From Escherichia coli (GTDB taxonomy: Bacteria; Pseudomonadota; Gammaproteobacteria; Enterobacterales; Enterobacteriaceae): a stretch of 64,000 bases of DNA. The stretch lies in assembly GCF_041886205.1 (NCBI RefSeq), contig NZ_CP169029.1. One strand, given 5' to 3'. Under the pieces are notes generated by a model. It worked only from the letters and a program-made list of their open reading frames with translations. It did not search any database and had not been told where the DNA came from. Positions 22,547 through 36,453 of this stretch are shown here, piece by piece. How positions within the stretch are numbered: the stretch's first letter is position 1; every line of letters starts with the position of its first letter. The position numbers and the translations under genes are program-made.

Positions 22547-22629
22547 TTAATGAACTTAATGATACAGCATTACAAAAACAATCGAAGTTTATAAAGATGA
22601 TTTCTGATTGACCAGCCCCCTACCCTACA

Positions 22630-23373: not shown

Positions 23374-24567
23374 TTACATCACCGCAGCAAACGCCTTTGC
23401 CACACGTTGTACATTTGCCGTATTTAACCCGGCGACACACATGCGACCGCTGGCGATGAGATAGACACCAAATTCTTCACGTAGTCGGTCAACCTGAGCG
23501 GCACTTAAACCGGTATAACTGAACATGCCGCGCTGATTAAGCAGATAATCGAAATTGCGTTCTGGCATCTCTGTGCTTAATACCTTCACCAATTCCTGAC
23601 GCATTGCCAGAATGCGAGTACGCATCTCTTCTACTTCCGCCAGCCAGCTGGCTTTCAATGCCTCGTCATTCAGCACTGCAGCCACCACCTGCGCACCAAA
23701 ATTCGGCGGGCTGGAGTAGTTGCGGCGAACTGTTGCTTTCAATTGCCCCAGTACGCGGCCAGCGGCTTCGGCATCTTCACACATAACAGAAAGTCCGCCG
23801 ACGCGCTCGCCGTAAAGGGAGAAAATTTTCGAGAACGAATTGCTCACCAGAGCGGGTAATCCAGCGCTGGCAATGGCGCGAATAGCGTAGGCATCCTCTT
23901 CCATACCGGCACCAAATCCTTGATAGGCAATATCGAGGAATGGAATAAGCTCGCGGGCTTTGAGAATTTCAATCACCGCATCCCACTGATCATTAGTGAG
24001 ATCGGCACCCGTTGGGTTGTGGCAACATGGATGCAGCAACACAATACTGCGGGCAGGTAATGTTTTCAGCGTCGCCAACAGGTCATTAAAGCGCACGCCG
24101 TTAGTCGCTTCGTCATACCAGGGGTAAGTACTCACTTCGAATCCAGCCCCGGCGAATATTGCTACGTGGTTTTCCCAGGTAGGATCGCTGACCCAGACGC
24201 CTGATTCCGGGAAGTAGCGTTTCAGGAAATCCGCGCCCACTTTCAATGCCCCGGAGCCGCCAAGGGTTTGAATGGTTGCTACGCGCTGTTGTTTCAGTAC
24301 CGGATGGTCCGCACCAAACAGCAGCGGCGCAATGGCATGGCGATAGCTGTTAAGCCCTTCCATCGGTAAATAAAGCGAAGCGCCATGAGGCTGCGCATTC
24401 AGGCGCGCTTCCGCCTCCGCCACGGCTTGCAGTTGTGGAATAATTCCGTCTTCGTTGTAGTACAGACCGATACTTAAATTCACTTTGTCGCTGCGAGGGT
24501 CTTCTTTAAAACGCTCCATAAGCGTAAGAATCGGGTCGCCAGCGTAGGCGTCAACTTTTTGAAACAC
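23374..24567 (-). CDS. tyrB: Aromatic-amino-acid aminotransferase TyrB (397 aa)
   Basis: Class I aminotransferase with [17 protein letters not shown]-lysine motif; N-terminus [14 protein letters not shown] implies GTG start at 24567. Confidence 0.9.
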
Positions 24568-28974: not shown

Positions 28975-30012
28975 TTAACGCTTATCCGCCACCAGTTTGA
29001 GCGCGTGTTCCAGCACATTAATGTCTGCACCCGCTTTATGGGCATTTTCACTTAAATAACGCCGCCACTGCCGCGCGCCAGGAATACCCTGGAACAAGCC
29101 CAACATATGCCGGGTAATATGACCGAGATACGTCCCCTGGCTGAGTTCACGCTCAATGTACGGATACATGGCGCGCACTACCGCCACCGGATCGGCATCG
29201 ATATCCGAGGAACCAAAGATCTCCCGGTCTACCGCCGCCAGAATACCCGGATTCTGATACGCCTCGCGCCCGACCATCACGCCATCCATATGTTGCAGGT
29301 GTGCTTTGGCCTCTTCCAGCGACTTGATACCACCGTTAATCGACATTGTCAGATGCGGAAAGTCACGCTTCAGTTGATACACACGCGGATAATCGAGCGG
29401 CGGGATCTCACGGTTTTCTTTCGGACTTAACCCCGAAAGCCAGGCTTTACGTGCATGGATGATGAACATCTCACACTCGCCTTTGCCGGAAACGGTGTTG
29501 ATGAAATCGCAGAGAAATTCATAGCTGTCCTGGTCGTCGATGCCAATACGCGTTTTCACCGTCACCGGAATCGACACCACATCGCGCATCGCTTTCACGC
29601 AGTCGGCAACCAGCTGCGCATTACCCATCAGACACGCACCAAACATGCCGTTCTGCACCCGGTCAGACGGGCAGCCGACATTCAGGTTGATCTCATCATA
29701 TCCACGCGCTTCTGCCAGCTTCGCACACTGCGCCAGCGCCGCCGGATCGCTACCGCCGAGTTGCAACGCTACCGGATGTTCTTCTTCACTATACGCCAGG
29801 TAATCACCTTTACCGTGAATAATCGCCCCTGTAGTTACCATTTCAGTATACAGCAACGTATTGCGGGAAAGCAGACGCAAGAAATAGCGGCAATGTCTGT
29901 CCGTCCAGTCGAGCATAGGAGCAATGCTAAACCGAGAATTCCAGTAAACACCAGTTTTTTCAGGCATCACGCTGGTTTGATTAATTTTTTGTGTTTCATG
30001 ATTATCGTGCAT
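28975..30012 (-). CDS. dusA: tRNA-dihydrouridine synthase A DusA; 5' end abuts the prophage integrase
   Basis: Dus-family TIM-barrel flavoenzyme; alternative start at 29967 would give 330 aa; the extreme 5' end is probably supplied by the integrated element. Confidence 0.9.
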
Positions 30013-30100: not shown

Positions 30101-31198
30101 ATGGCGTACTATAACATAGAGAAACGACTAAAATCCGATGGCACACCACGCTATCGCTGTAATGTGATTATCAAAGAAAAAGGTGTTATCACTTACAGGG
30201 AAAGCAAAACATTCCCTAAACATGCTCATGCCAAAACATGGGGCACACAGAAAGTGATGGAATTAGATCTATATGGCATTCCATCATCAAATGCAGTTGA
30301 CGGACTTACAGTCCGTGACTTACTACACAAATATTTAAATGACCCAAATGCCGGAGGTAAAGCAGGCCGTACTAAAAGATATGTGCTAGAACTGCTTATG
30401 GATAGTGACATCTCCGCGATCAAACTATCTGAACTGACAGAAAATGACGTAATTGAACATTGCAGGCTAAGAAACAACGCTGGCGCAGGTCCAGCAACAG
30501 TCAGCCACGATGTTAGTTATCTTGGTAGTGTTCTGGATGCGGCCAAACCTGTATACGGAATTAATTACACATCAAACCCGGCGAAAAGTGCTCGTCCATA
30601 TCTACTTAAACTTGGTTTGATTGGTAAATCAAACCGTCGTAATCGTAGACCAGCATCTGATGAACTGGACATGCTCATTGAAGGCCTTCAACAACGATCT
30701 ACTCATAAATGCTCAAAAATTCCGTTCGTTGATATCCTCAAATTTTCTGTGTGGTCCTGTATGCGAATCGGAGAAGTATGCCGGTTACGATGGGAAGATC
30801 TCGACCAGGAACAAAAATCTATACTCGTAAGAGACAGGAAAGATCCACGCAAAAAGGAAGGCAACCACATGAAAGTAGCCTTGCTTGGGGAAGCCTGGGA
30901 TATCGTCCAACGACAGCCCCAAAAATCGGAATTCATTTTTCCATATAACAGCACTTCTGTTACTGCGGGATTTCAGAGAGTAAGAAGCAAATTAGGTATT
31001 AAGGATCTGCGATACCATGATTTGCGTAGAGAAGGGGCAAGTCGCTTATTTGAGGCTGGTTTTAGTATTGAGGAAGTCGCCCAGGTTACAGGGCATCGTT
31101 CATTAAACGTGCTATGGCAGGTATATACCGAACTGTATCCGAAATCTTTACATAATCGTTTTGAAGAGCTCCAAAGGAGCAGAAATAAGATCCCTTGA
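30101..31198 (+). CDS. int: Tyrosine site-specific integrase (dusA-targeting type)
   Basis: 365-aa ORF with C-terminal catalytic region (HDLRREGASR ... LWQVYTELY); first phage gene next to the dusA 5' end. Confidence 0.8.
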   Translation: MAYYNIEKRLKSDGTPRYRCNVIIKEKGVITYRESKTFPKHAHAKTWGTQKVMELDLYGIPSSNAVDGLTVRDLLHKYLNDPNAGGKAGRTKRYVLELLMDSDISAIKLSELTENDVIEHCRLRNNAGAGPATVSHDVSYLGSVLDAAKPVYGINYTSNPAKSARPYLLKLGLIGKSNRRNRRPASDELDMLIEGLQQRSTHKCSKIPFVDILKFSVWSCMRIGEVCRLRWEDLDQEQKSILVRDRKDPRKKEGNHMKVALLGEAWDIVQRQPQKSEFIFPYNSTSVTAGFQRVRSKLGIKDLRYHDLRREGASRLFEAGFSIEEVAQVTGHRSLNVLWQVYTELYPKSLHNRFEELQRSRNKIP

Positions 31199-31200
31199 CA

Positions 31201-31244
31201 CTGTTTATCCATACAGTTAAAAATAATACTGTATACAAACACAG
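31201..31244. promoter_or_regulatory. Two tandem LexA (SOS) boxes upstream of the dinI-like gene
   Basis: ctgtttatccatacag (31201-31216) and ctgtatacaaacacag (31229-31244), both CTGT-N8-ACAG; a TTGACA hexamer sits at 31195-31200. Confidence 0.7.
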
Positions 31245-31259
31245 TATAGAGGGACTTTT

Positions 31260-31508
31260 ATGCGTATTGAAATCTGCATAGCCAAAGAAAAAATGACTAA
31301 AATGCCAACCGGTGCTGTGGATGCGTTAAAGGAAGAATTAACCCGACGCATCAGTAAGCGTTATGACGATGTAGAGGTGATCGTAAAAGCCACCAGCAAC
31401 GATGGGCTTTCAGTTACACCTACTGCAGATAAAGATTCAGCTAAAACTTTTGTGCAGGAAACTCTGAAAGATACCTGGGAGTCTGCTGACGAGTGGTTTG
31501 TTCACTAA
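31260..31508 (+). CDS. DinI-family protein (82 aa)
   Basis: [31 protein letters not shown]...[16 protein letters not shown] resembles DinI (MRIEV..., C-terminal ETWESADDWFV). Confidence 0.75.
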
Positions 31509-31511
31509 TTA

Positions 31512-31570
31512 GCACTATCGGAAGTTCACCAGCCAACCGCAGCACGTTTTTGCATACAACGTGCCTGCGG
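31512..31570. repeat. Repeat copy R1 (about 60 bp, hairpin plus T-run; acts as dinI-like terminator)
   Basis: gcactatcggaagttcaccagccaaccgcagcacgtttttgcatacaacgtgcctgcgg followed by ttttt; about 90% identical to 34181-34240. Confidence 0.7.
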
Positions 31571-31731
31571 TTTTTCGAGACTATTCTGACCGTCATACTT
31601 ACACATCAACTTAGCGCCCATCCAGAGAAATTATCTTTTTTGCATTCCGAAGATTCAAAGAGTTAGCCTAATTTTCCAGATAGTTTTCTCGACAAATCTG
31701 AGGTATTTTGGTTATCGATATAGTGCTTTGG

Positions 31732-32788
31732 GGCTTTGTTGAATAAATCAGATTTCGGGTAAGTCTCCCCCGTAGCGGGTTGTGTTTTCAGGCAATACGC
31801 ACGCTTTCAGGCATACCTGCTTTCGTCATTTTGTTCAGCGCTCGTACCAGGGCCATAGCCTCTGCAACCTGACCATCGTAGTCACGCAGCGTCAGTGAAC
31901 CCCCGAACAGCTGTTTTACCCGGTACATCGCCGTTTCCGCTATCGAGCGACGGTTGTAATCTGTTGTCCATTTCCACCGCGCATTACTCCCGGTCATTCG
32001 CTGATTAGCCACTGCACGGTTACGGTCTGCATATTCACCGGGCCAGTAACCCGCACCTTTTCGGGGAGGGATAAGCGCGCTGATTTTCTTACGCCGCAGT
32101 TCATCGTGACATAGCCGGGTATCGTAAGCGCCATCGGCGGCGGCTGACCTGATTTTCCGGTGGGTTTGCCGGATTAACCCGGGGAAGGCCTCTGAGTCCG
32201 TAACGTTGTTCAGCGACAGGTCAGCGCAGATGATTTCATGTGTTTTACTGTCAACGGCGAGATGCAGCTTACGCCAGATACGGCGGCGTTCCTGGCCATG
32301 CTTTTTGACTTTCCACTCGCCTTCACCGAAGACCTTCAGCCCGGTGGAATCAATTACCAGGTGTGCGATTTCACCCCGGGTGGGCGTTTTGAAACTGACA
32401 TTAACCGACTTTGCCCGCCTGCTGACACAGCTGTAATCCGGGCAGCGTAGCGGAACGTTCATCAGAGAAAAAATGGAATCAATAAAGCCCTGCGCAGCGC
32501 GCAGGGTCAGCCTGAATACGCGTTTAATGACCAGCACAGTCGTGATGGCAAGGTCAGAATAGCGCTGAGGTCTGCCTCGTGAAGAAGGTGTTGCTGACTC
32601 ATACCAGGCCTGAATAGCTTCATCATCCAGCCAGAAAGTTATGGAGCCACGGTTGATGAGGGCTTTATTGTAGGTGGGCCAGTTGGTGATTTTGAACTTT
32701 TGCTTTGCCACGGAACGGTCTGCGTTGTCGGGAAGATACGTGATCTGATCCTTCAACTCAGCAAAAGTTCGATTTATTCAACAAAGCC
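31732..32788. mobile_element. IS903-group insertion sequence (IS5 family), 1057 bp, apparently intact
   Basis: 18-bp terminal inverted repeats ggctttgttgaataaatc (31732-31749) and gatttattcaacaaagcc (32771-32788); flanked by 9-bp direct target duplication gtgctttgg (31723-31731 and 32789-32797). Confidence 0.9.
31788..32756 (-). CDS. IS903-group DDE transposase
   Basis: 322-aa ORF filling the IS; motif DSTGLKVFGEGEWKVKKHG typical of IS903/IS102 transposases; true start may be internal. Confidence 0.85.
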   Translation of the reverse strand: MKDQITYLPDNADRSVAKQKFKITNWPTYNKALINRGSITFWLDDEAIQAWYESATPSSRGRPQRYSDLAITTVLVIKRVFRLTLRAAQGFIDSIFSLMNVPLRCPDYSCVSRRAKSVNVSFKTPTRGEIAHLVIDSTGLKVFGEGEWKVKKHGQERRRIWRKLHLAVDSKTHEIICADLSLNNVTDSEAFPGLIRQTHRKIRSAAADGAYDTRLCHDELRRKKISALIPPRKGAGYWPGEYADRNRAVANQRMTGSNARWKWTTDYNRRSIAETAMYRVKQLFGGSLTLRDYDGQVAEAMALVRALNKMTKAGMPESVRIA

Positions 32789-32843
32789 GTGCTTTGGCTG
32801 AGGAACAGCATTAAATTCAACCATTTTATTCATAGGGATTAAA

Positions 32844-33848
32844 ATGCAAGATACAGACGTTTACGTATACATAGGCGATGTTCACCGCTCTGGTCATCAC
32901 GACATCACCAAAGCGATTAAAGAAAGAAAAACTAACCATGGTTTACAAAAAAATGTTCTTTTTTGCGTCGCTACCTATGGCGGTGATCCCAGCGCAGGAT
33001 ATAGAATTGGCCGCGCTTTGCAACACAACTATGAACACATCACCGTTCTAGTTGTTGGCCCTTGCAAAAGTGCTGGAACCTTGATGGCTGTCGCCGCTCA
33101 TAAGCTCGTGATTGGTGATATGGGTGAGCTTGGTCCTCTAGACATCCAACTTAAGAAAAATGATGAGATCGGCGAATTGAGCTCGGGCCTTGTTATCGCA
33201 ACGGCGATTGATGAAATAAAAGAGTGCGCTATTTCGACCTTTAGATCATACGTACTTGATATAAAGTACAGAAACCAAATTAGCACGAAGATGTCTGCAG
33301 ATATTGCTGCTAAGCTTACTGAAGCAATCATATCGCCGATGGCCTCACAGATAGACCCCATCAAACTCGGGGAGCATCAACGAGCAATGAACATAGCGCT
33401 TTCCTATGGGGAGCGTTTGAATAGTCACTCGAAAAATCTTAAGGAAAGCTCCTTAGGCAAGTTGATCGCTGGATATCCAGCCCATGGTTTTGTGATAGAC
33501 CGTAAAGAGGCGAGGGAACTATTCAACCATGTTGAGAGTCCTACAGACTTTGCAGCCAACCTGTACGAAGTTCTTGGTGAGATGATTTCGTCAGGCGAAA
33601 TCTCTATCTTCGACAAACCGGTGATTAAAGATTTAACTCCTAAAAAACAATATGAAACAACTAACGCAGAGGAAGATTCCCATGACAACAGCAGAATTCA
33701 GGAAGGAGATGAAATCTCTGACCAAAATTCAGGAAGAGCAGAACCGCCAAGGGATGAACCTGTCCAGGGAAGCGATGGAAAACATGCGGAAATTGAAGAA
33801 GAGGCTGGAACCTTACCAGCAGAGCAACCAGATGAAGGCACTCAGTGA
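32844..33848 (+). CDS. Orphan ClpP/crotonase-fold serine peptidase-like protein (S49/SDH-like) with acidic low-complexity C-terminal tail
   Basis: 334-aa AT-rich ORF with SD (aggga) 8 bp upstream; core ...VATYGGDPSAGYRIGRAL...VVGPCKSAGTLMAVAAHKLVIGDMGELGPLD resembles Clp-fold peptidases; last ~70 aa rich in E/D/Q; family assignment from memory only. Confidence 0.55.
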   Translation: MQDTDVYVYIGDVHRSGHHDITKAIKERKTNHGLQKNVLFCVATYGGDPSAGYRIGRALQHNYEHITVLVVGPCKSAGTLMAVAAHKLVIGDMGELGPLDIQLKKNDEIGELSSGLVIATAIDEIKECAISTFRSYVLDIKYRNQISTKMSADIAAKLTEAIISPMASQIDPIKLGEHQRAMNIALSYGERLNSHSKNLKESSLGKLIAGYPAHGFVIDRKEARELFNHVESPTDFAANLYEVLGEMISSGEISIFDKPVIKDLTPKKQYETTNAEEDSHDNSRIQEGDEISDQNSGRAEPPRDEPVQGSDGKHAEIEEEAGTLPAEQPDEGTQ

Positions 33849-33869
33849 ATATTGTAGTTTCTGATTGAG

Positions 33870-33901
33870 GACCTCGGCTACTACGCCGGGGTCTCTTTTT
33901 A
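33870..33901 (+). terminator. Intrinsic terminator after the peptidase gene
   Basis: gacctcggc-tactac-gccggggtc hairpin followed by tctttttaca. Confidence 0.6.
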
Positions 33902-34180
33902 CATCACTGGGCAGTCATCAAACTCCGCATTCCTAGCATCGTGATGATGTACGTGATTGCTCCGAATATTGAGTGTGAGTAATTGTAGCCACCACCATCA
34001 TCTGGCAGTGCTTCCGTTCTCCAGATTTATCAGGTGGGACTAAGGATGAGTACGATATCGCTTAATCCTGAAACTCCATTTCAGACAGGGACCCTATTAC
34101 AGACCGAAAGACCACAGATAAGTAGTTTGTTCATAAATTAATGCGTAGAATCAATAACGGCTGGAAATCATTCAATACTC

Positions 34181-34240
34181 GCACTATCGAAAGTTCGCCA
34201 GCCAGCCGCAGCACGTTCTTGCATACGACGTGGCTGCGGC
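34181..34240. repeat. Repeat copy R2 (about 60 bp) next to the invertase 3' end
   Basis: gcactatcgaaagttcgccagccagccgcagcacgttcttgcatacgacgtggctgcgg; 54/60 identical to R1; contains 13-bp stem agccgcagcacgt / acgtg(g)ctgcggct. Confidence 0.7.
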
Positions 34241-34280
34241 TTCCAACATTAGACAAATAACTCTTTAAATTGCTTTTAAA

Positions 34281-34844
34281 TTATTTCGTTTGAATGCCAG
34301 TAACAGGAAATCGTTTATATAGGGTTGATAGCCCAACGTTATAGATACGTGCAACATAACGCCGTGATTTCCCTGCCGCTATGAGCGCTCCCATCTGTTG
34401 CCACTGCTCGTCGCTAAACTTCGGTCTACGCCCACCAATCCGGCCTTTGGATCTGGCAATAGCCAAACCAGCTAAAGTTCGCTCGCTATTCAAATCAGAT
34501 TCATACTGCGCAGCAGAAAGAATATTACGGAAATTATAGCGACCACTTGCTGTTTTCAGGTCTACACCATCTGTAATACTCCGAAAATTAACGCCTTTTT
34601 CGTGCAGATTTTGAAACATCAATAGCGCATGTAGCACATTTCTCCCTATCCGATCTAGCTTCCAGACAATCAACTCATCTCCACTTTTCATCACCGAAAT
34701 TAATTCCTTTAACACAGGGCGATTAGCTGTTCTGCCACTGGCATATTCTTCATAAATTCGCTCACAGCCAGCTGACTCAAGTGCAAGACGTTGCAACTCT
34801 GTATCCTGATGATTTGTTGATACACGAACATACCCGTAAATCAT
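34281..34844 (-). CDS. Serine DNA invertase (Pin/Gin/Hin/Cin family)
   Basis: N-terminus MIYGYVRVSTNHQDTELQ with catalytic Ser, resolvase domain, C-terminal HTH (GLSTLYKRF); adjacent to invertible tail-fibre segment. Confidence 0.9.
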   Translation of the reverse strand: MIYGYVRVSTNHQDTELQRLALESAGCERIYEEYASGRTANRPVLKELISVMKSGDELIVWKLDRIGRNVLHALLMFQNLHEKGVNFRSITDGVDLKTASGRYNFRNILSAAQYESDLNSERTLAGLAIARSKGRIGGRRPKFSDEQWQQMGALIAAGKSRRYVARIYNVGLSTLYKRFPVTGIQTK

Positions 34845-34903
34845 GAGTGCTTCTCCTGTTGTAAAAACAGGAGAAGAGGCGAAATATCACCTGATTCAGA
34901 AAA

Positions 34904-34929
34904 ATATTTGAAAGGTTGGTTTGGGAGAA
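34904..34929. promoter_or_regulatory. Left crossover site of the invertible tail-fibre segment
   Basis: Contains ttggtttgggagaag (34916-34930), inverted copy of cttctcccaaaccaa at 36813-36827; half-site resembles gix half TTATCCAAAACC. Confidence 0.65.
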
Positions 34930-35415
34930 GGCTCAGCGTTACCCGTTGGTGTGCCTGTTCCGTGGCCTTCAGCCACACCACCAACAGGCTGGCTGAAATG
35001 CAACGGTGCACCTTTTTCTGCCGAAGAGTACCCAAAACTGGCAAAGGCTTACCCAAAGTTAAAATTACCGGATTTGCGCGGTGAGTTTATTCGCGGGTGG
35101 GATGATGGGCGAGGTGTTGATTCCGCGAGACTGCTGCTTTCAAGTCAGGCAGCATCTATCCTTGAACATAACCATGAAATGCATGGATGGACAGGGAACC
35201 CACTCATGGCTAGAGATGTTGGTGAATTAGGTACATCATCCGTATTTGCGGTGCAGTTGAGCATTGGCGATGGCGGGTTATTGTATTCGTGGAAGGATGG
35301 GAGTGGAACAACAAATGACAGTAAACGAATGGATAGAACAAATCATGTCAGTTCCGGCGCCGGTGATGGTAGCCCGCGAAACATTGCATTTAACTACATT
35401 GTGAGGGCTGCATAA
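34921..35415 (+). CDS. Alternative (currently unexpressed) tail-fibre C-terminal variable domain
   Basis: Frame opens exactly at the left crossover site with no ATG (ORF-track M is TTG); encodes tail-collar-like receptor-binding domain. Confidence 0.7.
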   Translation: MGEGSALPVGVPVPWPSATPPTGWLKCNGAPFSAEEYPKLAKAYPKLKLPDLRGEFIRGWDDGRGVDSARLLLSSQAASILEHNHEMHGWTGNPLMARDVGELGTSSVFAVQLSIGDGGLLYSWKDGSGTTNDSKRMDRTNHVSSGAGDGSPRNIAFNYIVRAA

Positions 35416-36018
35416 ATGGAACAGGCTATTTTGGGAAAAGACGGTTACGCTTTAAATGATGGGGAAATCATCGTACATAACTATGATGGCGAAACGCGGG
35501 AATATATTTCTACATCAACTGAATATCTCGCTGTCGGAGTCGGTATCCCGGCATGTTCCTGTCTGGATGCACCAGGTACACATAAAGCTGGTTATGCAAT
35601 CTGTCGCTCTGTAGATTTAAATTCATGGGAATATGTGCCAGACCATCGCGGTGAAACGGTCTATAGCACCAAAACAGGAGAATCAAAAGAAATCACCGCT
35701 CCGGGTGATTACCCTGAAAATACAACCACTATCGCCCCATTAACGCCATACGATAAATGGGATGGTGAGAAATGGGTGACCGATACTGAGGCACAGCATA
35801 GCGCCGCAGTAGACGCGGCAGAAGCACAGCGCCAGTCACTGATTGATGCTGCAATGGCTTCCATTAGTCTGATTCAACTGAAATTGCAGGCCGGACGTAA
35901 ACTGACGCAGGCAGAAACAACCAGACTTAACGCTGTGCTGGATTACATTGACGCGGTGACGGCAACAGATACCAGCACCGCGCCGGATGTCATCTGGCCT
36001 GAACTGCCGGAGGCGTAG
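35416..36018 (+). CDS. Tail-fibre assembly chaperone (Tfa) for the alternative fibre
   Basis: 200 aa with conserved Tfa C-terminus LNAVLDYIDAVTATDTSTAPDVIWPELP. Confidence 0.75.
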   Translation: MEQAILGKDGYALNDGEIIVHNYDGETREYISTSTEYLAVGVGIPACSCLDAPGTHKAGYAICRSVDLNSWEYVPDHRGETVYSTKTGESKEITAPGDYPENTTTIAPLTPYDKWDGEKWVTDTEAQHSAAVDAAEAQRQSLIDAAMASISLIQLKLQAGRKLTQAETTRLNAVLDYIDAVTATDTSTAPDVIWPELPEA

Positions 36019-36442
36019 GCCATTCAATATCTGGCGCACTGGAGGTATCAACCAGCTCCAGTGCATCCAGATAATCCAGCCACAAATTATATTGCGCCAG
36101 TTCCTCACCTTTCAGACGACCAATAGCGGCTTTACCGGGCCATTGCTTACTGTTCATGTATTCGTTGGCCTGGTTAATTAGTAGCTGTCTTTCTGATTCA
36201 GTAATTTCAATAAGCTCTTCATGCGTGGGTGGAGGAATATCTGCCCACGCAGGCAGCCCATCATCTCCGGCAATACGGATTTTTCCTTGTGGCGGTTCAG
36301 CCATAAACTCACTGATAATATTTTGATTTACTTCCTTAGCGTCTGATAAATCCCATCCCTCTGATTTATATTTATCAATCATATCCACAGGGAAAAAAGC
36401 ATTATGCCTTGCGCTATAAACATATTCGTTCATATAAATCAC
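35990..36442 (-). CDS. Tail-fibre assembly chaperone (Tfa) for the currently expressed fibre
   Basis: 150 aa, C-terminus LWLDYLDALELVDTSSAPDIEWPTPP; converges on the other tfa. Confidence 0.75.
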   Translation of the reverse strand: MIYMNEYVYSARHNAFFPVDMIDKYKSEGWDLSDAKEVNQNIISEFMAEPPQGKIRIAGDDGLPAWADIPPPTHEELIEITESERQLLINQANEYMNSKQWPGKAAIGRLKGEELAQYNLWLDYLDALELVDTSSAPDIEWPTPPAVQAR

Positions 36443-36453
36443 CCTGAATAAAA

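Follow-up and report, generated by a model that had tools for sequence, protein, structure and literature searches.

The morons of lambdoid phages are units composed of a promoter, a gene, and a terminator, a concept that came from the comparison of HK97 and HK022. In E. coli and Salmonella, the prophage loci between the tail fibers and the attachment site keep many type III effectors, anti-phage defense genes, and SOS modulators. Gene hopping between unrelated phages is usually ascribed to unspecified "mosaicism", whereas at the locus described here, one searchable sequence of 35–100 nt stands at the cassette junctions. The locus lies in a 64,000-nucleotide stretch of the Escherichia coli contig NZ_CP169029.1 (assembly GCF_041886205.1), called the window in its full length, which holds enterobacterial chromosome (qor, pspG, dusA) and a prophage at the 5′ end of dusA. 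The gene order is integrase, dinI-like gene, R1, IS903B, protease-like gene, R2, Pin-type invertase, and tail-fiber and baseplate genes, where R1 and R2 are two hairpin-containing direct repeats. Judged by their sequence, both repeats are copies of a discrete non-coding element of around 97 nt that belongs to enterobacterial temperate phages. We consider it fairly probable that this element is a shared intrinsic terminator, which doubles as a homology handle for the gain, loss, and exchange of cassettes.

The dinI-like gene agrees with the moron concept, as it has its own promoter-like site and a putative terminator, and the protease gene, the defense gene PD-T4-3, ea47 of lambda, and others likewise behave as autonomous units, present or absent between close relatives. 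The concept needs no common terminator, whereas here one hairpin family closes many morons at mosaic junctions. By its architecture, the closest described analogue of the element is the promoter-early stem-loop (PeSL) cassette of the T4-type phages. Arbiol et al. (2010) describe PeSLs as a promoter combined with a terminator stem-loop and report the formation of mini-circles (PMC2839356). These short intergenic motifs occur as direct copies around non-essential genes in plastic regions, and recombination between the copies explains insertions, deletions, and replacements among close relatives (PMC2839356). The element shows the same arrangement, since its direct copies flank genes present or absent between relatives, with the junctions located within the copies (at dusA, at prfC, in the sister prophage L001, and in 48 further loci). 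There are two differences. First, PeSLs carry a strong sigma-70 early promoter, whereas a consensus scan found no sigma-70-like promoter within, overlapping, or before the element of R1 and R2. Second, the hosts of PeSLs are virulent myoviruses, whereas the element resides in temperate lambdoid, P2-like, and Mu-like prophages, at the junction of integrase and tail fiber.

A second likeness is found in the linker or boundary-sequence model. De Paepe et al. (2014) showed experimentally that lambdoid phages exchange DNA segments with defective prophages through short diverged homology by means of Rad52-like recombinases (PMC3945230). In their experiments, the partners of lambda include Rac and Qin, with exchange in the stf/tfa region, which adjoins the element (PMC3945230). 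That text differs from the present description in quantifying mosaics generally; within the available part, neither the element nor a specific hairpin is described as a recurrent junction (PMC3945230).

The repeat pair and the element family

A repeat search of the 64-kb window places R1 (31512–31573) and R2 (34181–34242) in one 62-nt direct-repeat family of 89% identity with only two copies, in agreement with the pair of ~60-bp, ~90%-identical repeats reported in the preliminary description of this DNA. The interrupted palindrome noted there in both repeats, CCGCAGCACG...CGTG-N-CTGCGG, has exactly two sites in the window, 31537–31570 and 34206–34239, and occurs in none of 100 dinucleotide-preserving shuffles. 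An unfiltered search of the whole 64 kb with a covariance model of the hairpin returned the same two sites only, at 67.7 and 61.3 bits, the next score being 14.7 bits (E=0.13). Each repeat folds into a stem of 13–14 bp with one bulged base, with a predicted energy of −19.0 kcal/mol for R1 and −21.8 kcal/mol for R2.

R1 is a 5′-truncated copy on the plus strand (31512–31575, element nt ~38–98). It begins 4 nt past the stop codon of the dinI-like gene, and its GC-rich hairpin, 28 nt past the same stop and co-oriented with the gene, is followed by the tract UUUUU (31571–31575). On this model, R1 is the putative intrinsic terminator of the dinI-like gene, a role already proposed for it. Alignment with the full-length copy behind the dinI of L002, a prophage at prfC, reveals a clean 40-nt deletion in the 5′ part of R1, which places GCACTATCG almost directly after the dinI stop. 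R2 is a full-length copy (34145–34239, plus strand) whose hairpin, 34206–34239, is followed by CTTCC. As first described, it lies just beyond the 3′ end of the invertase gene, 41 nt past the pin stop codon and on the opposite strand. The similarity on the R2 side extends left to 34117 when a 40-nt indel is allowed, and the region 34117–34244 is 91% identical to the dinI 3′ end and downstream element of L002. The positions 34117–34144 (plus strand), directly upstream of the full element, are the decayed 3′ end of a second dinI-like gene, recognized by BLAST against the L002 dinI end (AGTAGTTTGTTCATAAATTA compared with AGTGGTTTGTTCACTAATTA of the intact gene). The earlier idea that R2 is the remnant of a displaced dinI-like 3′ end is borne out by this finding; a decayed end of the same type is also present in the Qin prophage of K-12.

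The element begins at GTAAAATC and ends with the last base of the hairpin, with the consensus GTAAAATCGGTAACGGCTGGAAATCATTCAATACTCGCACTATCGAAAGTTCACCAGCCAA-CCGCAGCACGTTCTTGCATACGACGTG(N)CTGCGG. Its copies were collected by scanning for sequence patterns in prophage sets where near-identical E. coli prophages abound. The covariation of the stem was counted on a hand-defined structure in 105 unique copies, gathered by an anchor outside the hairpin. In this set, 94% of the stem cells are in standard pairs, and 45 cells are compensatory, including C-G to U-A in 15 sequences, A-U to G-C in 15, and A-U to C-G in 3, together with others. None of 500 column shuffles matched the observed pairing or compensatory count, and when the 3′ partner was slid as a control, the pairing fell to 23–57%. 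Further compensatory pairs occur in the K-12 copy between ykgJ and ecpE (two changes) and in the second lambda copy. Because the stem is kept by compensatory change, the hairpin appears to be under selection in RNA. The bulged base is G, T, C, or absent across the same copies. A U-tract, taken as at least three T within the first 4 nt, follows the hairpin in 152 of 267 copies. Hairpin-only copies are located 8 nt and 24 nt past the stops of a methyltransferase-like gene and of PD-T4-3, and a copy likewise follows lambda ea47.

The R1 region matches 4725 of the 5426 complete E. coli genomes (87%), at a median of 2 and at most 7 places per genome, and the R2 region matches 197 phage records, including HK97, mEp460, and Stx phages. 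The possibility, raised in the preliminary description, that the similarity is confined to this genome is thereby dismissed. The other possibility raised there, a common dispersed element unrelated to module boundaries, is half right: the element is dispersed, yet precisely at module boundaries. It is also present on viral contigs, including Salmonella loci of the SopE type. In mEp460, the order is integrase, dinI, element, and tail fiber. Of the two copies in E. coli K-12, one lies at the left end of Qin and the other, a solitary dinI pseudogene with the element, between ykgJ and ecpE (L128, 8228–8379), outside any annotated prophage. The GenBank record of HK633 labels its own copy "attP" merely from similarity to this ykgJ–ecpE region, which is probably a misannotation. 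In lambda, a full copy lies on the leftward strand at nt 24161–24256, between ea31 and ea47, and a hairpin-only copy at 22570–22609, between ea47 and tfa; ea47 is therefore bracketed by two direct copies.

The HK97 copy lies between attP and tfa and begins 4 nt past the annotated sib/tI site. The lambda tI/sib hairpin resembles the element in being located downstream of int and co-oriented. However, the two differ in sequence and are separate sites, which in lambda stand 3.3 kb apart with the element on the left; no role of RNase III is implied. A scan of genome contigs with the short, AT-rich anchor AAATCATTCAATANNNNNACT returned 120 loci, almost all of them chance matches in unrelated phyla, and the element is truly present in three of them only (L144, L231, and L232).

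For the element, Rfam gives a single match, far under the gathering score, to the 3′ hairpin of CssrB (RF02799) on the opposite strand. The 3′ terminator hairpin of this Shigella sRNA B is the reverse complement of the element hairpin (window 34207–34262, minus strand; L128 8184–8252). The body of CssrB has no match in the window or in the K-12 copy, and a literature search for CssrB gave nothing relevant. From the sequence of the stem, an opposite-strand transcript may, in some contexts, end at the same stem-loop. Next to K-12 ykgJ, there is also a match to the Rfam sRNA candidate IS009 (L128 7700–7814), just over the gathering score with 118.3 bits and unrelated to the element. A full-text search with stretches of the element sequence returned no paper, and this widespread cassette-boundary hairpin is apparently undescribed. 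Open reading frames (ORFs) have been called across it, such as a 63-amino-acid "hypothetical protein" in lambda (L335, lambda imm434, 2471–2662) and a 35-amino-acid "capsid protein" called by PGAP over R2 of L001 (5966–6073). Such short ORFs are probably annotation artifacts, because some variants of the element hold in-frame stops.

Cassette junctions in sister prophages and elsewhere

The comparison with related prophages proposed in the preliminary description gives different cargo bracketed by, or abutting, the same repeat. At least five other dusA prophages (L015, L068, L074, L077, and L089) are 97–99% identical to the window on the left (dusA–int–dinI) and on the right (element–pin–baseplate), and hold a single dinI–element–pin arrangement, which represents the empty site. 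Against these sisters, the window positions 31516–34120 are an insertion. The divergent patch stops ~15 nt into R2, and the right crossover therefore falls within the element. The prophage L001 shares the cassette and leaves the window homology at about nt 63 of R2, in the 5′ arm of the hairpin, to continue into another tail-fiber module; its flank matches the K-12 ykgJ–ecpE copy. The two comparisons thus place crossovers at element nt ~15 and ~63. In the slot between dinI–element and pin of the prfC prophages, the cargo is the protease in avian pathogenic E. coli (APEC) O78 and ynfT–ydfK in strain N53.

The empty dusA sites, the alternative prfC cargo, and the switch of L001 inside R2 uphold the earlier suggestion that the repeats are module boundaries used for cassette exchange. 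The accompanying statement that they delimit exactly the IS903 and peptidase block has to be amended. The bracket itself stands, but IS903B is an independent later insertion, unrelated to R1 and R2, and the block also holds a terminator of the protease gene and an S24 peptidase remnant. IS903B is a recent insertion because it is absent from L001, which is otherwise 99.5–99.8% identical to the window prophage and whose homology picks up exactly at the target duplication.

The flanks of the element are combinatorial. Next to the 267 copies, there are 31 classes of flank upstream and 53 downstream, unrelated to one another and combined in 96 ways, and 22 of the downstream classes occur with the dinI 3′ end. 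The upstream partners include dinI, the lambda-type sib, and the ea31 side of lambda, and the downstream partners include the 3′ ends of tfa and pin together with many cargo genes. The lambda-type upstream flank was considered as a further-decayed dinI and rejected, since the local alignment was no better than that of shuffles; the element is therefore an independent unit and not always the tail of dinI.

Among the other fetched loci, 48 have two or three direct copies with different cargo between them. The bracketed genes include a methyltransferase-like gene and the PD-T4-3 defense gene (PADLOC, 2.5e-140), and in the three-copy arrays of L016 and L282, dinI itself is bracketed. Another cargo spans 4.2 kb and combines an EcoRII-like endonuclease gene, named by eye from its N-terminal sequence, with a Dcm-type cytosine methylase and PD-T4-3, in the viral contigs L115, L116, L035, and L046. 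PD-T4-3 also occurs alone as a 1.02-kb cassette, and the pair of arrangements looks like a nested or stepwise assembly of cassettes. Genes of the IpaH family, SopE, EspM2/EspW, and ynfT–ydfK adjoin copies elsewhere.

Proposed mechanism and competing explanations

As the mechanism behind these junctions, we infer termination activity together with homologous recombination. The stem-loop core would act in RNA as a factor-independent terminator and 3′-end cap. The full element would serve the SOS-regulated dinI-like moron, its hairpin-only version would serve many other accessory genes, and it would face the convergent tail-fiber/invertase module. The stem-loop closes many unrelated cassettes; therefore, it is the only homology that they share and could become the handle for homologous recombination. 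Recombination by the phage Red/RecT-type system or by the host RecA would insert, swap, and delete the cassettes. In the window, a cassette would have recombined into the dinI–element–pin site, bringing in the leader, the Clp-fold protease gene with its terminator, the S24 remnant, and the decayed dinI′. The left crossover would have taken place in the dinI/element region at R1 and the right one inside R2, and IS903B would have hopped into the cassette leader afterwards.

The mode of exchange is indicated by the copies themselves. In the four-gamete test, all four allele combinations are present in 179 of 406 informative site pairs within 97 nt, adjacent sites included, and hybrid hairpins with mismatched arms exist. 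The neighboring recombinases vary between dusA-type, lambda-type, IntS, P4-type, Pin, or none, with no consistent partner. Because the crossovers are scattered, the alleles shuffled, the bulge dispensable, and no recombinase consistently present, the exchange appears to be homologous rather than site-specific.

If this reading is true, the element would be a simple marker that delimits moron, defense, and effector cassettes in prophages. It would also allow homologous cassette exchange to be measured on a testable substrate, in lambda by standard genetic methods, and would serve as a warning to annotation, as spurious short ORFs are called across it. For the window, it would explain the origin of the protease block and would predict the precise loss of the block by recombination between R1 and R2.

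Several observations weigh against the terminator and homology handle. The U-tract is missing in 115 of the 267 copies, and R2 has only the poor tract CUUCC, with a gene remnant as its upstream neighbor; many copies would therefore be weak terminators. The four-gamete count could be inflated by recurrent mutation, and since the collections are rich in similar prophages, the numbers of copies and loci are not numbers of independent events. In addition, three features would remain unexplained by a plain terminator or homology patch. First, the loop UUCUUGCAUACGA is near-invariant across the 105 copies, although the stem covaries. Second, the 57-nt 5′ part is strongly conserved. Third, the 5′ edge GTAAAATC is sharply defined in at least 8 unrelated contexts.

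Such features would suit the best placed of the competing explanations, which we nevertheless regard as unlikely. It holds that the element is primarily a regulatory RNA, a small RNA (sRNA) derived from the 3′ untranslated region (3′UTR) of the dinI-like mRNA and of other upstream transcripts. The 57-nt region and/or the loop would be its target-binding part, the hairpin its terminator, and the boundary position would be secondary. The model for this behavior is DinR of Klebsiella pneumoniae, an sRNA from the 3′UTR of a LexA-controlled dinI transcript, the 3′ end of which is a functional unit with a target-pairing stretch just 5′ of the terminator; the authors leave open whether other species do likewise (PMC10907235). 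The element resembles it in directly following the stop of a dinI-like gene with two LexA-box-like sites and in ending with a terminator hairpin, and the predicted fold of the full element is more stable than that of shuffled sequence (z about −3). However, 40 nt of the conserved region are missing from R1, the copy that follows the sole intact dinI-like gene here, many cassettes have the hairpin only, and many copies have no dinI upstream. DinR has no sequence relation to the element, and its pairing stretch is Klebsiella-specific. In a crude test of duplex energy against positions −80 to +40 of E. coli ftsZ, neither the full element (p=0.06) nor R1 (p=0.56) paired better than shuffles, and no complementarity to ftsZ was found. 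The absence of a promoter-like site in or before the element, of any Rfam family beyond the partial opposite-strand match to the CssrB terminator, and of informative covariation in the mostly invariant upstream stem GGCUGG/CCAGCC argue in the same direction. The other prophage sRNAs HnrS, located in the late region and restricted to enterohemorrhagic and enteropathogenic E. coli (EHEC/EPEC), and svsR, at the 3′ end of cI, were considered and belong to different loci.

Next in order, and also improbable, is the reading of the bracket as incidental debris, in which R2 would be the tail of a dinI-like gene lost in an old illegitimate rearrangement and R1 the terminator of the surviving gene, with no role of the repeats in the arrival or departure of the block. 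The decayed dinI 3′ end before R2 is in accord with it, and so is the age of the decayed dinI′–element unit, which is found in K-12 Qin and elsewhere. R2 also has a poor U-tract and nothing intact upstream to terminate, as the protease gene has its own terminator. On the other hand, the same architecture recurs with many cargos and in lambda, prophages that are otherwise near-identical have the site empty or filled with other cargo, the junctions with the sister prophages lie inside the element, and even solitary remnants preserve the stem through compensatory change.

A more ambitious reading, which we regard as a long shot, takes the hairpin, the near-invariant loop, and the 57-nt arm together as a purpose-built recognition element. 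It would be either a site through which a phage or host protein directs cassette capture and exchange or a widespread phage 3′UTR sRNA with targets of its own. If the capture-site version were true, it would amount to an integron-like system for defense and virulence morons, operating in lambda itself.

The least probable explanation is that the hairpin is a dedicated, structure-specific recombination site, comparable with attC or the sites of hairpin-recognizing transposases. Cassettes would move as circles with the help of a phage or host enzyme, and arrays of hairpin–cargo–hairpin would arise by single-site integration. A circle crossing once at a resident site would indeed yield the observed architecture, in which direct repeats of exactly the hairpin flank the cargo in arrays of up to three copies (L016 and L282), cargo-specific sequence begins or ends within a few nt of the stem, and the imperfectly palindromic stem has a bulged base and carries a conserved loop. 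Mini-circles are documented for the PeSL cassettes of T4-type phages (PMC2839356). Like the element, attC sites are imperfect palindromes at the 3′ end of cassettes, in direct orientation in arrays, with an unpaired stem base. However, attC sites conserve their structure while the sequence varies, whereas the sequence of the element is conserved; they also have conserved extrahelical bases, R and L core sites, and IntI, whereas the element has a dispensable bulge and no dedicated integrase. With no GTTRRRY core in the arms, no IntI-type or other recombinase consistently adjacent (dusA-type, lambda-type, IntS, and P4-type integrases, or none), a bulge that is missing in many copies and variable in base, and crossovers at varied positions over 97 nt with allele combinations shuffled throughout, which is the signature of homologous exchange, this explanation is very improbable.

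Cargo and neighboring genes of the dusA prophage

The cargo gene of the block encodes a protein of 334 amino acids (32844–33848, plus strand), which resembles a Clp-fold serine protease of the "SDH type", a name given by PGAP in L001 and L002. Its matches to Pfam PF01972 (9.4e-6) and NCBIfam NF047768 (35.9 bits, far under the cut-off of 250) are weak, at 25–36 bits, and cover residues ~20–106 alone. The C-terminus is long, acidic, and of low complexity, and the protein has no match in PADLOC. The terminator scan placed a terminator-like hairpin of the gene at 33869–33894 (plus strand), followed by CTTTTT. The remnant of an S24-family peptidase pseudogene (LexA/CI-like), carried with the cassette, is located on the minus strand at 33899–34072, coordinates transferred from the annotated L002 pseudogene (5678–5851) via a 97.4% alignment.

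IS903B (31732–32788, minus strand, 1057 bp) is inserted in the leader of the protease cassette. It has the features of IS903 in the IS5 family, namely terminal inverted repeats, a transposase, and a 9-bp target duplication. The duplication GTGCTTTGG is perfect (31723–31731 and 32789–32797), and the inverted repeats, 31732–31764 and 32756–32788, are 33 nt long with 79% complementarity and 18-bp ends GGCTTTGTTGAATAAATC. The transposase is encoded by a 322-amino-acid ORF with a TTG start, and matches "IS5-like element IS903B family transposase"; the insertion sequence is 99% identical to IS903B copies. The insertion sits 55 bp 5′ of the protease start codon and, from this placement, probably stands between the gene and its native leader or promoter.

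At the left end of the prophage, dusA (28975–30012, minus strand) adjoins a tyrosine integrase of the dusA-inserting type (30101–31198, plus strand, ORF of 365 amino acids). Its identity is supported by the near-identical locus L001, where a tyrosine-type recombinase/integrase is annotated next to dusA, and in phage mEp460 an integrase of equal length adjoins dinI. The DinI-like gene (31260–31508, plus strand) encodes 82 amino acids and matches NCBIfam PRK10597, DNA damage-inducible protein I, with E=2e-20 and under the curated cut-off; the PGAP name of the gene in both L001 and L002 is "DinI-like family protein". Upstream of it, the promoter scan detected a promoter-like site on the plus strand (31195–31246; TTGACA, 18 nt, AAAAAT). 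Two tandem LexA-box-like sequences CTG-N10-CAG (31200–31219 and 31227–31246), read by eye against the established LexA consensus, overlap this site, an arrangement that suggests tight SOS control of the prophage gene.

On the other side of R2, the Pin/Hin-type DNA invertase (34281–34844, minus strand, ORF of 187 amino acids) is convergent with the dinI side and is the first gene of the tail-fiber module; its homologues are named "Recombinase family protein" or pinQ. A quick inverted-repeat scan for invertase crossover sites around the tail-fiber segment gave nothing clear. Beyond pin, an ORF for a tail-fiber C-terminus (34921–36018, plus strand) is opposed to a tail-fiber-assembly ORF (35990–36442, minus strand), and this arrangement within 34845–36450 has the layout typical of an invertible host-range segment.

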